Positions 20,591 to 26,350 of a stretch of 64,000 nucleotides of DNA are shown here, in pieces. The notes under the pieces are model-generated. The model ran no database searches. It had not been told where the DNA came from and saw only the letters and a list, made by a program, of their open reading frames with translations. This DNA comes from Escherichia coli (GTDB lineage: Bacteria > Pseudomonadota > Gammaproteobacteria > Enterobacterales > Enterobacteriaceae), in the NCBI RefSeq assembly GCF_024502345.1, contig NZ_JALDNN010000001.1, one strand, 5' to 3'. The translations under genes and the position numbers were made by a program. Position 1 is the first letter of the stretch. Every line of letters begins with the position of its first letter.

Positions 20591-21178
20591 TTGTGACCAT
20601 AAAACATTTATCAAAAATCTACTACTAGCATAGCAAAGCTACAATTAACATAACCTTAATAGACCCAACATAAAGAATAATCTGAATAGCTGCTCTATTT
20701 ATTTCCGCTTGTTCAAGTTAAATATTTCCGCGCATCGATTAAAGATGATGCGTCGTTTTCTGCGATGGGAATAGTCAAAAAAGAAAAACCAAGTCTTTTT
20801 TGATGACAAAATGCAATCAAGGAAAAATTATTTTATTTTTTAACTAGATACAACAATCATCTTAACGAAGTATATAATATAAATCGTCAACCTATGCTCA
20901 TGTTAGATTATTTTTTGAGCGCACAGCCGCAGCTAACACCATTGCAATTAACAAATTTGCATCAATCCACCATCAATTTACACACATTATTATGTGATAA
21001 TTGCCAACCGCTAAATATGCGTTTTGTTATCTATGTATAAAAACAGCAACTTCAATGTCTTAATGGCAGTTTTTCTTGATTTTAATCAGCATTCATCGCC
21101 AATTTATTGGGCATATTTTTTCCTTAAGCTTTAGGAATTTTTTATTATTTACTTTGGGGCCTGGAGACAGGAAAAATT

Positions 21179-22564
21179 ATGCTGACATTCATTGAACTCC
21201 TTATTGGGGTTGTGGTTATTGTGGGTGTAGCTCGCTACATCATTAAAGGGTATTCCGCCACTGGTGTGTTATTTGTCGGTGGCCTGTTATTGCTGATTAT
21301 CAGTGCCATTATGGGGCACAAAGTGTTACCGTCCAGCCAGGCTTCAACAGGCTACAGCGCCACGGATATCGTTGAATACGTTAAAATATTACTAATGAGC
21401 CGCGGCGGCGACCTCGGCATGATGATTATGATGCTGTGTGGATTTGCCGCTTACATGACCCATATCGGCGCGAATGATATGGTGGTCAAGCTGGCGTCAA
21501 AACCATTGCAGTATATTAACTCCCCTTACCTGCTGATGATTGCCGCCTATTTTGTCGCCTGTCTGATGTCTCTGGCCGTCTCTTCCGCAACCGGTCTGGG
21601 TGTTTTGCTGATGGCAACCCTATTTCCGGTGATGGTAAACGTTGGTATCAGTCGTGGCGCAGCTGCTGCCATTTGTGCCTCCCCGGCGGCGATTATTCTC
21701 GCACCGACTTCAGGGGATGTGGTGCTGGCGGCGCAAGCTTCCGAAATGTCGCTGATTGACTTCGCCTTCAAAACGACGCTGCCTATCTCAATTGCTGCAA
21801 TTATCGGCATGGCGATCGCCCACTTCTTCTGGCAACGTTATCTGGATAAAAAAGAGCACATCTCTCATGAAATGTTAGATGTCAGTGAAATCACCACCAC
21901 TGCTCCTGCGTTTTATGCCATTTTGCCGTTCACGCCGATCATCGGTGTACTGATTTTTGACGGTAAATGGGGTCCGCAATTACACATCATCACTATTCTG
22001 GTGATTTGTATGCTGATTGCCTCCATTCTGGAGTTCCTCCGCAGCTTTAATACCCAGAAAGTTTTCTCTGGTCTGGAAGTGGCTTATCGCGGAATGGCAG
22101 ATGCGTTTGCTAACGTGGTGATGCTGCTGGTTGCCGCTGGGGTATTCGCTCAGGGGCTTAGCACCATCGGCTTTATTCAAAGTCTGATTTCTATCGCTAC
22201 CTCGTTTGGTTCGGCGAGTATCATCCTGATGCTGGTATTGGTGATTCTGACCATGCTGGCGGCAGTCACGACCGGTTCAGGCAATGCGCCGTTTTATGCG
22301 TTTGTTGAGATGATCCCGAAACTGGCGCACTCTTCCGGCATTAACCCGGCGTATTTGACTATCCCGATGCTGCAGGCGTCAAACCTGGGCCGTACCCTTT
22401 CGCCCGTTTCTGGCGTAGTCGTTGCGGTTGCCGGGATGGCGAAGATCTCGCCGTTTGAAGTCGTAAAACGCACCTCGGTACCGGTGCTTGTTGGTTTGGT
22501 GATTGTTATCGTTGCTACAGAGCTGATGGTGCCAGGAACGGCAGCAGCGGTCACAGGCAAGTAA
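21179..22564 (+). CDS. dcuC: anaerobic C4-dicarboxylate transporter DcuC
   Basis: 461-aa polytopic membrane protein, uninterrupted; preceded by long AT-rich control region. Confidence 0.95.
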   Translation: MLTFIELLIGVVVIVGVARYIIKGYSATGVLFVGGLLLLIISAIMGHKVLPSSQASTGYSATDIVEYVKILLMSRGGDLGMMIMMLCGFAAYMTHIGANDMVVKLASKPLQYINSPYLLMIAAYFVACLMSLAVSSATGLGVLLMATLFPVMVNVGISRGAAAAICASPAAIILAPTSGDVVLAAQASEMSLIDFAFKTTLPISIAAIIGMAIAHFFWQRYLDKKEHISHEMLDVSEITTTAPAFYAILPFTPIIGVLIFDGKWGPQLHIITILVICMLIASILEFLRSFNTQKVFSGLEVAYRGMADAFANVVMLLVAAGVFAQGLSTIGFIQSLISIATSFGSASIILMLVLVILTMLAAVTTGSGNAPFYAFVEMIPKLAHSSGINPAYLTIPMLQASNLGRTLSPVSGVVVAVAGMAKISPFEVVKRTSVPVLVGLVIVIVATELMVPGTAAAVTGK

Positions 22565-22604: not shown

Positions 22605-23285
22605 TCACCCACTGTGGTATATGCGTTGTGGTCTGCCAACTTTGCCGTGAACAATTTCAGCAATAATCAGATGGCGGCTGGCGCAATATTCAAGATAACG
22701 CCTGGCAGTGGTGCGACTGATGGTCAGTGCCTGCGCCACCGTTTCTGCCGTATGTTGCACACCAGGCTCTTTAAACAGTTTTCGCACCGCGTTTAGCGTC
22801 AAGGGATCAATGCCGGTCGGCAGTTCGTCTTTAGGTTCACCGCGAGCATAGGCATTAAACATCTCATCAATTTGCTTCTGGCTGGCGCTATCAATACTTT
22901 CCAGCATATGTTTACGCTGGCGGAAACGGGTTAGCGTTTGCCCCAGCCGTTCATAGGCAATGGGCTTAATGAGATAATCAAATACACCACAACGTACGGC
23001 TTCAGACACCGTTTCCATATCGCTGGCTGCAGTGGTAAACACCACGTCGCCGGGATAATGCGCCTGCACCAGTTCATGCAATAAATTAATCCCTCTGCCG
23101 TCAGGAAGATAGTTATCGAGCAAGATTAGCCCCGGCTTAAAACGCTCGATCATCATTCGGGCCTGCGCCAGGTTTCCCGCCAGTAATATCTGACTGAATC
23201 CGGGAATGTGACGAATATATTCCGCATGCATCTCTGCCAGCGGCGTTTCGTCCTCAACGATCAATAGGGTTAATGGAGCTGTCAT
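22605..23285 (-). CDS. dpiA: two-component response regulator DpiA (CitB)
   Basis: 226 aa; receiver domain with phospho-acceptor Asp (LILLDNYLPDG) plus C-terminal HTH. Confidence 0.93.
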   Translation of the reverse strand: MTAPLTLLIVEDETPLAEMHAEYIRHIPGFSQILLAGNLAQARMMIERFKPGLILLDNYLPDGRGINLLHELVQAHYPGDVVFTTAASDMETVSEAVRCGVFDYLIKPIAYERLGQTLTRFRQRKHMLESIDSASQKQIDEMFNAYARGEPKDELPTGIDPLTLNAVRKLFKEPGVQHTAETVAQALTISRTTARRYLEYCASRHLIIAEIVHGKVGRPQRIYHSG

Positions 23286-24912
23286 TAGGTTTCACTTTCG
23301 GAATATAGATTGAAAATAAGGTACCGCAGGGATCATTATCTTCGAGAGTGATAACACCACCGCAGCGCGTTACATAGCTGGCAATCAAGTACAACCCAAT
23401 GCCATGTTCACCGGGCTCGTCAGCACGCGTACTGACCCCCTGCTCAAATATTTTGTCTCGTAGAGACTCTGGAACGCCGCAGCCCTGATCGGCGACTTCA
23501 ATCACCACATCATCGCCTTCATCGCTGAGGAATAATTCAACGATCTTGTTTCCTTCATCGCTACGCAGGCTGGCTTCGAAGGCGTTATCAAGTAAATTTC
23601 CCACAATGGCGGCAAACTCGGTGCTATCCAGTCCTGGCGGCAGTTGCGAAAGCTGGCTACCGGGGACGATGATCATTTTTAGCCCCAGTTCGCGGGCGCG
23701 CTGAACTTTACCAAAAAGCAGCCCCGCCACCTGGCGATCGGCAAACGCCTCGCGCAGGCTGTCAATAAGCTGTTGCTGGGCCTGAGACTCCCCCTGCACC
23801 ATCGCCAGCACGCGATCATACTCTTTCATCTGCAACAGACCATTGAGCGTCGACATCCAATTGAGATGCTCGTGTCGCAATGTACGAAGGCTCTCGACGT
23901 ATTGTTTTATTTGCGTCAGTTGCGCATTGAGGGTGGAAATTTCGTCTTTACTACGAAAGCTGATAATGGCCCCCAGCAAATCATCACCTGAACGAATAGC
24001 TTCCCGATTGGCAATAACGCTCAGACCGTTAAAGTTAGCCACCACATCCTGACGTTTTTCATCAATCTGTTCGGTAAAGAAATCGGCGGGCCTGACCACT
24101 TCAGCAATGGGTTTACCCAACCATTGCCGTCCGGGGGAACTCAGCCCCAGCATCTTTCTTGCGTTACGATTGATGGCGGTAATGTAACCGTGCGGATCCA
24201 CCGCAATCAGCCCTTCATAAACCGAACTAAACAGCGCCTCTTGCTGACGGACCACGCGTGCGATTTGCTTTGGCTCCATGCCCATCATCTGCCGACGGAT
24301 ATGCGCGGCCAGGAACCACGACAGCAACATCAGAATCCCTAACAGCACGACAAACACACCTGCCATCGGTAATAAAAACTCAGCCCGCCAGCTATCGATT
24401 TTACTCACCAGGTAGCCAATCGACACCACGCCGATGACTTTTCCATCGTCATCAAAGATTGGCGTTTTGGCGCGCATCGCCATACCCATTGACCCTTTCC
24501 CGGTAATGAAGTAGCTCTCCCCTTTCTCCAGCGCGCCCTGTTTGGTGAACTGCATAGGATAACCAATTTTCTCCGGATTAGGATGGTAAAGGCGGATCGA
24601 GTGCCGGTCGCCAATCACCACATAATCAAAATCGGTATCTCTTTGTAATTTGTTAGCGATGGTCGCCAGCCGTTTGTAGTCACGCGTTTTTACTGCGCTG
24701 ATGATACTGTCATTGGAGGCAATAATTTTCGCCTGATTCATTGCCATGTCGCGTACATGAAGCGTTAAATAGTCCTCAAAACTGGCCGTAAAATATTGCG
24801 CCAGGGCTGCAATGACAAATATTGAGAACACCAGAATCAGCAAAAAGATACGCAGCGGAAATGCCAGTCTTTGGAAAAATGCAAACTGTTTATTCTCGTT
24901 AAGCTGCAACAT
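23254..24912 (-). CDS. dpiB: sensor histidine kinase DpiB (CitA)
   Basis: 552 aa from MLQLNENKQ; two TM segments, periplasmic domain, HATPase; overlaps dpiA start by 32 bp. Confidence 0.93.
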   Translation of the reverse strand: MLQLNENKQFAFFQRLAFPLRIFLLILVFSIFVIAALAQYFTASFEDYLTLHVRDMAMNQAKIIASNDSIISAVKTRDYKRLATIANKLQRDTDFDYVVIGDRHSIRLYHPNPEKIGYPMQFTKQGALEKGESYFITGKGSMGMAMRAKTPIFDDDGKVIGVVSIGYLVSKIDSWRAEFLLPMAGVFVVLLGILMLLSWFLAAHIRRQMMGMEPKQIARVVRQQEALFSSVYEGLIAVDPHGYITAINRNARKMLGLSSPGRQWLGKPIAEVVRPADFFTEQIDEKRQDVVANFNGLSVIANREAIRSGDDLLGAIISFRSKDEISTLNAQLTQIKQYVESLRTLRHEHLNWMSTLNGLLQMKEYDRVLAMVQGESQAQQQLIDSLREAFADRQVAGLLFGKVQRARELGLKMIIVPGSQLSQLPPGLDSTEFAAIVGNLLDNAFEASLRSDEGNKIVELFLSDEGDDVVIEVADQGCGVPESLRDKIFEQGVSTRADEPGEHGIGLYLIASYVTRCGGVITLEDNDPCGTLFSIYIPKVKPNDSSINPIDR

Positions 24913-25291
24913 TGTTTTCCTTGCGGGTTGTCCCGAGCCTCTTTGACGGATGTAATTAAAATGTTGAATCAAAATACATAGATATTAATTATAATCGTGG
25001 CAAATTTTATTCATTAAATCAATTAAATCACTTAAACCTGCGGGTCATTTCGTAATTACATTAATTAAAAAACTTAAAACCATTAAATAAATAAAAAACC
25101 ACTAACTCTATGTGAAATAAATCAAAATTTCACGCCGAAATACTCCTTAGGATGTATAGCGAAAGGAGAAAAAGATATACCTCAATCACCCCCCTTTCTC
25201 CCAAGTGAAAATAAAAGGTTATCAGTTTGCAACATTGAACAACATTCGTTGCAAATCGATAACAACATGCACCTTCAGGATACTATTTATT

Positions 25292-26350
25292 ATGTTCGGC
25301 AATGATATTTTCACCCGCGTAAAACGTTCAGAAAATAAAAAAATGGCGGAAATCGCCCAATTCCTGCATGAAAATGATTTGAGCGTTGACACCACAGTCG
25401 AAGTATTTATTACCGTAACCCGCGATGAAAAGCTTATCGCGTGCGGTGGAATTGCCGGAAATATTATTAAATGCGTTGCTATCAGTGAATCCGTTCGCGG
25501 TGAAGGACTGGCGCTGACATTAGCCACTGAACTGATAAACCTCGCCTATGAGCGGCACAGCACGCATCTGTTTATTTATACCAAAACCGAATACGAGGCG
25601 CTGTTCCGCCAGTGCGGTTTTTCCACGTTGACCAGCGTACCAGGCGTGATGGTGCTGATGGAAAACAGCGCCACGCGATTGAAACGCTATGCCGAATCGC
25701 TGAAAAAATTTCGTCATCCCGGGAACAAGATTGGCTGCATTGTGATGAACGCCAATCCCTTTACGAAGGGTCACCGTTATCTGATTCAACAAGCTGCGGC
25801 ACAGTGCGACTGGTTGCATCTGTTTTTAGTCAAAGAAGATTCTTCACGCTTCCCCTATGAAGACCGGCTGGATCTGGTGTTAAAAGGCACCGCCGATATT
25901 CCACGCCTGACTGTGCATCGCGGCTCCGAATACATCATCTCCCGCGCTACGTTCCCTTGCTACTTCATTAAAGAACAGAGCGTCATTAACCATTGTTACA
26001 CCGAAATTGATCTGAAGATTTTCCGTCAGTACCTCGCTCCCGCACTGGGTGTAACTCACCGCTTTGTCGGTACTGAACCCTTTTGTCGCGTTACCGCCCA
26101 GTACAACCAGGATATGCGCTACTGGCTGGAAACGCCGACTATCTCCGCACCGCCCATCGAACTGGTTGAAATTGAGCGGCTGCGTTACCAGGAGATGCCG
26201 ATATCCGCTTCCCGGGTACGTCAACTGCTGGCGAAAAACGATCTCACGGCTATCGCGCCGCTGGTCCCTGCAGTCACGCTGCATTATTTGCAGAACCTGC
26301 TTGAGCACTCCCGCCAGGACGCGGCAGCTCGTCAAAAGACCCCCGCATGA
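25292..26350 (+). CDS. citC: [citrate (pro-3S)-lyase] ligase
   Basis: 352 aa from MFGNDIFTRV; first gene of cit operon divergent from dpiB. Confidence 0.93.
   Translation: MFGNDIFTRVKRSENKKMAEIAQFLHENDLSVDTTVEVFITVTRDEKLIACGGIAGNIIKCVAISESVRGEGLALTLATELINLAYERHSTHLFIYTKTEYEALFRQCGFSTLTSVPGVMVLMENSATRLKRYAESLKKFRHPGNKIGCIVMNANPFTKGHRYLIQQAAAQCDWLHLFLVKEDSSRFPYEDRLDLVLKGTADIPRLTVHRGSEYIISRATFPCYFIKEQSVINHCYTEIDLKIFRQYLAPALGVTHRFVGTEPFCRVTAQYNQDMRYWLETPTISAPPIELVEIERLRYQEMPISASRVRQLLAKNDLTAIAPLVPAVTLHYLQNLLEHSRQDAAARQKTPA

Follow-up and report, generated by a model that had tools for sequence, protein, structure and literature searches.

The 379-bp spacer between the divergent genes dpiB (of the citrate-sensor pair dpiBA) and citC (of the citrate-lyase operon) of Escherichia coli (24913-25291 of the window, by which we mean the whole stretch of 64,000 nucleotides analysed) carries two arrays of 9-bp head-to-tail repeats, and these arrays are most likely tandem operators for the phosphorylated response regulator DpiA (DpiA~P; CitB), placed upstream of a class-II-type citC promoter. 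What is shown here for this assignment comprises the repeats as such and the statistics on them, besides their conservation across genera, the constant distance that they keep to the core promoter and a specificity for cit loci. An earlier note on this DNA had proposed the repeats as candidate DpiA sites, and this proposal has gained support: in 14 genera, no other part of the spacer is conserved as well as the arrays, which lie at a fixed distance from the citC core promoter; in ~550 kb of related loci, phased arrays are seen almost exclusively upstream of citC; the citrate response of the Citrobacter rodentium promoter is abolished by a truncation that takes away everything upstream of the CRP-like box; and MaeR, a homologous regulator, recognises three repeats in tandem that share the ATTWAA core. 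The control region is already known and well studied, and its DpiA sites are already curated; added here are a base-level grammar (3 + 5 units, a 9-bp period and fixed spacing) and its conservation across genera.

Full-length matches to NCBIfam equivalogs were obtained for DpiB (23254-24912, minus strand), DpiA (22605-23285, minus strand), CitC (25292-26350, plus strand), DcuC (21179-22564, plus strand), CitD and CitE. Since the RefSeq annotation of E. coli gives a spacer of the same length and the equivalogs agree, the gene names and coordinates reported previously for dpiB, citC and the spacer are correct. The segment 24500-25700 has matches in 5,420 of 5,426 complete genomes with an identity of 95-99.8%; polymorphism within the species gave no discrimination between the arrays and the leader, because E. 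coli genomes are too similar (95-100%). DpiA, of which DcuR is a paralogue, is composed of a receiver domain and a "DpiA-like" HTH_64 domain. The closest solved relative of DpiA is the receiver domain of MaeR (5lwk, E=2e-18), while PDB holds no entry covering the DpiA-like HTH_64 DNA-binding domain. An Rfam scan of 24600-25600 gave zero family matches.

The G+C content of the spacer is 31.4% against 51.5% for the whole window, which confirms its earlier description as very AT-rich, and it falls to 20.5% in the core (24950-25130); no other 180-bp stretch of the 64-kb window is as low. Another stretch below 30% G+C, at 856-1457, comprises a 173-aa minus-strand ORF with its upstream region and is unrelated to the cit locus. 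The string quoted in the earlier note for iterated attaaatca-like units, cattaaatcaattaaatcacttaaa, sits at 25012-25036, and Tandem Repeats Finder reports ATTAAATCA x2.7 at 25013-25036; these units are thus real but represent only half of the pattern, a second triplet being present at 25065-25087. Array A (25013-25039, plus strand), the proposed distal DpiA~P operator, has three 9-bp units starting at 25013 (ATTAAATCA), 25022 (ATTAAATCA) and 25031 (CTTAAACCT), and lies ~100-127 bp upstream of the dpiB ATG; relative to the predicted start of citC transcription, it covers ~-147 to -121. Array B (25055-25099, plus strand), the proposed proximal operator, has five 9-bp units, of which the outer two are degenerate, starting at 25055 (ATTACATTA), 25064 (ATTAAAAAA), 25073 (CTTAAAACC), 25082 (ATTAAATAA) and 25091 (ATAAAAAAC), and covers ~-105 to -61. 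The arrays are separated by a gap of 15 bp with their starts 42 bp apart, and the 3 + 5 units in register give the consensus ATWAAAnMM. As would be expected of tandem operators of citrate-family (HTH_64) response regulators, both arrays have at least three head-to-tail AT-rich repeats with an ATTWAA-like core.

The pentamer TTAAA starts at 25014, 25023 and 25032 in array A and at 25065, 25074 and 25083 in array B, with exact 9-bp spacing in both. Two same-strand TTAAA triplets with this spacing were found in 0 of 20,000 dinucleotide-preserving shuffles, whether the spacer or its AT-rich core was shuffled (P<5e-5), and P was ~2e-4 when the triplets were allowed to consist of whatever 5-mer, at whatever spacing between 7 and 12 bp. 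On either strand of the 64-kb window, no other 9-bp-phased TTAAA triplet is present, so that the pair in the spacer is unique.

The composition of the core, the most AT-rich stretch of the window, is typical of H-NS targets, and a genomic SELEX study with RpoS holoenzyme alone lists a peak in the citC-dpiB spacer of K-12 (PMC5493296), which indicates affinity for RNA polymerase. Both observations would suit a reading in which the arrays mainly bind or nucleate nucleoid-associated proteins (H-NS, Fis, IHF), or act through intrinsic curvature or in the manner of an UP element, with no specific regulator involved; binding of nucleoid proteins had also been proposed in the earlier note. We regard this reading as unlikely, because the conservation is position-specific, with T2 and A4-A6 of the unit nearly invariant and positions 7-9 variable, because the repeats are strand-specific (all spacer copies are on the citC-sense strand, 7 TTAAA versus 0 TTTAA) and keep a rigid 9-bp phase across genera, and because equally AT-rich stretches elsewhere in the window are without such arrays. 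As to curvature, A-tracts phased at 9 bp do not sum to planar curvature. Silencing of the spacer by H-NS could exist as an added layer and is compatible with DpiA operators; a literature search yielded no usable DpiA ChIP data or motif and no H-NS binding data for the citC/dpiB spacer.

For comparison across species, 80 loci (~550 kb) were retrieved with CitC as a query from contigs of one genome per species, and dpiB is divergent from citC in more than 45 of them. Phased arrays are found 200-280 bp upstream of citC in Escherichia, Citrobacter, Salmonella, Intestinirhabdus, Enterobacter, Hafnia, Buttiauxella, Atlantibacter and Providencia, and in these genera the phased TTAAA are located at about -280/-271/-262 and -238/-229/-220 relative to the citC ATG. 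When both strands of the 80 loci were searched, all phased TTAAA pairs and triplets except one were in the citC upstream spacer, nearly always on the citC strand. The arrays are kept in Serratia and its relatives, in which dpiA, not dpiB, is divergent from citC. In some Enterobacteriaceae (L024, L030, L031 and L038; ~2700-3000), dcuC directly precedes citC with no dpiBA between them, and in these dcuC-citC spacers array B is retained in a shortened form, together with the TGTGA box and TAnnnT. Two properties to be expected of a DpiA/CitB operator were found in the spacer: it is located in the cit control region beside dpiA/dpiB, and its arrays are conserved with the regulator in 14 genera, almost confined to citC upstream spacers in the 80 loci and unique in the 64-kb window.

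When the spacers of 14 enterobacterial genera were aligned, the mean column identity was only 45%, and the blocks 25014-25038 and 25060-25085, which correspond to the arrays, were among the strongest conserved, array B being the most conserved block of the spacer. A matrix pooled from 112 units reads A-T-(T/A)-A-A-A, with variable bases, rich in A/C, at the last three positions; unit scans based on such a matrix are partly circular, whereas the exact-TTAAA scans of the window and of the 80 loci are not. A block of 175 bp (24986-25160) has zero indels across the 14 genera, and within it the distances from A1 to B2 (51 bp), from B2 to the CRP-type box (47 bp) and from the box to the -10 (37 bp) are the same in every genus, in contrast to the 120 to 148 bp that separate the -10 and the citC ATG. 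AT-rich spacers readily acquire short tandem duplications, and units A1 and A2 of E. coli are identical, as would be the case if the repeats were functionless products of neutral replication slippage. The arrays nevertheless stay in register across genera despite spacers with ~45% identity per column, and their distance to the core promoter is without indel in 14 genera. Because of this conservation, we exclude neutral slippage with a confidence close to certainty.

Downstream of the arrays, a CRP/FNR-family box, TGTGA-N6-TCAAA (25111-25126, plus strand, centre 25118.5), shows almost no variation among the 14 genera, and a conserved TAnnnT follows 37 bp downstream. The box differs from the CRP core at one position and from the FNR core at two; with four matches found against 1.8 expected, the count by itself lends no significance to any one of them. 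The predicted citC -10 (25148-25153, plus strand), proposed from conservation, reads TAGGAT here and TACGAT in most other genera, with T1, A2 and T6 invariant in the 14 genera. From the fixed spacings and the end of the indel-free block at 25160, we therefore infer that citC transcription starts near 25160, which would place the centre of the box at ~-41.5, in a class II geometry. A generic scan of the spacer for sigma-70 promoters and terminators gave 0 matches, as expected because the predicted citC promoter is without a -35 element and activator-dependent, and says little beyond that. The heptamer TACTCCT (25141-25147, plus strand) directly abuts the predicted -10 and perfectly matches the NarL heptamer consensus TACYYMT; as a putative nitrate repression site, it is a plausible basis of the reported nitrate repression of citC. 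The Shine-Dalgarno sequence AGGA (25277-25280) and the citC ATG at 25292 (together 25277-25294, plus strand) are both conserved.

The EcoCyc sites of DpiA (CitB) in the citC-dpiB (citA) region are said to have been curated from the work of Yamamoto et al. in 2009 (Biosci Biotechnol Biochem 73:346). An indication of their position is available from a biosensor of citrate and anaerobiosis that was built from the dpiAB-PcitC of C. rodentium (PMC12405535). The citrate response was kept in DTR304, which has the full spacer without heterologous dpiAB and relies on the DpiAB of the E. coli host, and was lost in DTR305, in which C. rodentium PcitC was truncated; the authors had mapped the deleted stretch from EcoCyc as "DpiA operator sites" (PMC12405535). 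The forward primer of DTR305 starts with CATCTAACTCTTTGTGAAATAAATCAAA and aligns to 25099-25126 of the window, so that the box and everything downstream were kept and both arrays were removed with all other DNA upstream of 25099. This indicates that the curated DpiA sites are upstream of 25099 and that the DNA there is needed for induction. As evidence for DpiA sites, the truncation should be read as a deletion of all DNA upstream of the box, rather than of the repeats alone, in a C. rodentium promoter.

Because this published deletion is large (~190 bp) and contains other conserved blocks (24951-24965 and 24992-25005), the repeats might be operators of another specific regulator, such as ArcA, NarL/NarP or a cross-talking DcuR, with DpiA binding elsewhere upstream; the reported response of citC to anaerobiosis and nitrate besides citrate would suit such a regulator. 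We consider this improbable. The unit core ATTAAA matches the repeats TTATT(A/T)AA that the homologous MaeR binds as three tandem copies in its own divergent spacer, where mutation of the repeats abolishes binding (PMC5457438), the ArcA 15-mer consensus has no match in the spacer at three or fewer mismatches, and the arrays accompany dpiA/dpiB-cit loci whatever their gene order. The unit is also unlike the NarL heptamer.

One of these other blocks, TGTAATTAAAATGTT (24951-24965, plus strand), has two TGT(A/T), TGTA and TGTT, 11 bp apart, lies 39-53 bp upstream of the dpiB ATG and is conserved from E. coli to Providencia. It is ArcA-like, and its assignment as an ArcA site was dropped on account of four mismatches to the 15-mer consensus. 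The conserved block AATCGTGGCAAATT (24992-25005) adjoins array A on the dpiB side, reads GATCGTTGCAGATT in other genera, i.e., AATC-N6-GATT, and possibly belongs to the dpiB promoter; a second copy, TCGTTGCAAAT, is present at 25246-25256 in the citC leader of Escherichia only. A dpiB promoter composed of TATAAT (24988-24995) and TTGCCA (24998-25003) was rejected, since this pair is not conserved in other genera.

In the citC leader, the block AAATAAAAGGTTATCAGTTTGCAAC (25210-25233, plus strand) is conserved and, in Escherichia, supplies the left arm of an inverted repeat of 16 nt (25218-25233/25248-25263; 88% complementary, arms 14 nt apart), of which this arm alone is conserved outside the genus. 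The minus-strand ORF at 25222-25527 (101 aa), antisense to citC, is nog1, described as an "overlapping orphan gene" (Fellner et al., 2015; PMC4683798). The description "completely embedded in citC" holds only when citC starts at GTG 25205, as in the EDL933 annotation. This GTG is CTG in other Escherichia clades and 25205-25291 has indels between genera, while both the Shine-Dalgarno sequence and ATG 25292 show conservation, which puts the final ~70 nt of nog1 in the citC leader.

The upstream region of dcuC, whose comparison the earlier note had suggested as a check, has isolated units only and no 9-bp-phased array. At 21076-21089, ~100 bp upstream of the dcuC ATG (21179), TTGATTTTAATCAG differs from the FNR consensus at one position and probably serves the anaerobically induced dcuC as its FNR site. 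Operators of DcuR at dcuB, frdA and dctA were reportedly described by Abo-Amer et al. in 2004 as tandem (T/A)(A/T)(T/C)(A/T)AA hexamers, which ATTAAA fits. As a point against the DpiA assignment, a K-12-like genome (L082) shows no clear 9-bp-phased array upstream of dcuB, a target of DcuR, where a grammar shared by DcuR and DpiA was sought.

On the proposed assignment of the arrays to DpiA, the sensor kinase DpiB (CitA) would phosphorylate DpiA under anoxia with citrate, and DpiA~P would then occupy the repeats head-to-tail as a cooperative oligomer, presumably with one HTH_64 domain per ATTAAA core. It would activate from ~-60 to -150 a citC promoter that is predicted to depend on activators in the absence of a -35 element, and the parts of this promoter would be the box at ~-41.5, TAGGAT and the start near 25160, with co-regulators that would be CRP or FNR judging from the box. 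Array A faces the dpiB side and probably serves in autoregulation of dpiBA as well. Another point against DpiA is the 9-bp period, which falls short of one turn of the helix and is uncommon where regulators bind in tandem. The 42 bp between the array starts correspond to four helical turns. With a head-to-tail period of 9 bp, successive monomers would spiral round the helix by ~-51 degrees per unit, and this would be an unusual, filament-like binding mode for a response regulator. We suggest only tentatively that the strict 9-bp ATTAAA grammar, with 3 + 5 units and an invariant distance to the CRP-type box and -10, is a not-yet-formalised operator code of the DpiA-like HTH_64 family. If true, the filament-like mode might explain the reported affinity of DpiA for AT-rich replication origins.

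The spacer is the switch for citrate fermentation in the gut by E. coli and its relatives, and is already in use as a part of citrate/anaerobiosis biosensors (PMC12405535). A base-level map, covering eight phased putative DpiA units, the CRP/FNR-type box, the NarL-type heptamer, the -10 and the 175-bp stretch of fixed spacing, is useful for engineering or mutating this promoter. The arrays are a real but ordinary feature, highly non-random, and the finding leaves the current understanding of the cit system unchanged.

Sites of CitB and CRP in the citS-citC control region of Klebsiella pneumoniae are said to have been described by Meyer, Dimroth and Bott in 1997 and 2001. According to PMC2735749, phospho-CitB and cAMP-CRP bind the Klebsiella spacer and activate the divergent cit promoters; this system shares with the present one an orthologous regulator, A+T-rich targets and a divergent cit control region with cAMP-CRP as a co-activator. 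A conserved CRP-type box lies beside the arrays here too, while the gene order differs, citS-oadGAB-citAB versus citC in Klebsiella and dpiBA versus citC here. The closest counterpart is the set of DpiA (CitB) operators of E. coli in EcoCyc, with the same locus, genes and regulator, and the curated sites are upstream of the CRP-like box, as judged from the primer design in PMC12405535. MaeR of Lactobacillus casei belongs to another phylum, responds to malate and has one array of three repeats versus 3 + 5 units here, and its repeat spacing is said to vary between species, in contrast to the fixed 9 bp of the present arrays (PMC5457438). It is, however, a regulator of the citrate family, and its three tandem repeats with an ATT(A/T)AA core, which are like the units found here, are located in the maeP-maeK spacer, as here a divergent spacer between the regulator's own operon and a catabolic operon, where phosphorylation enhances the binding of MaeR (PMC5457438).
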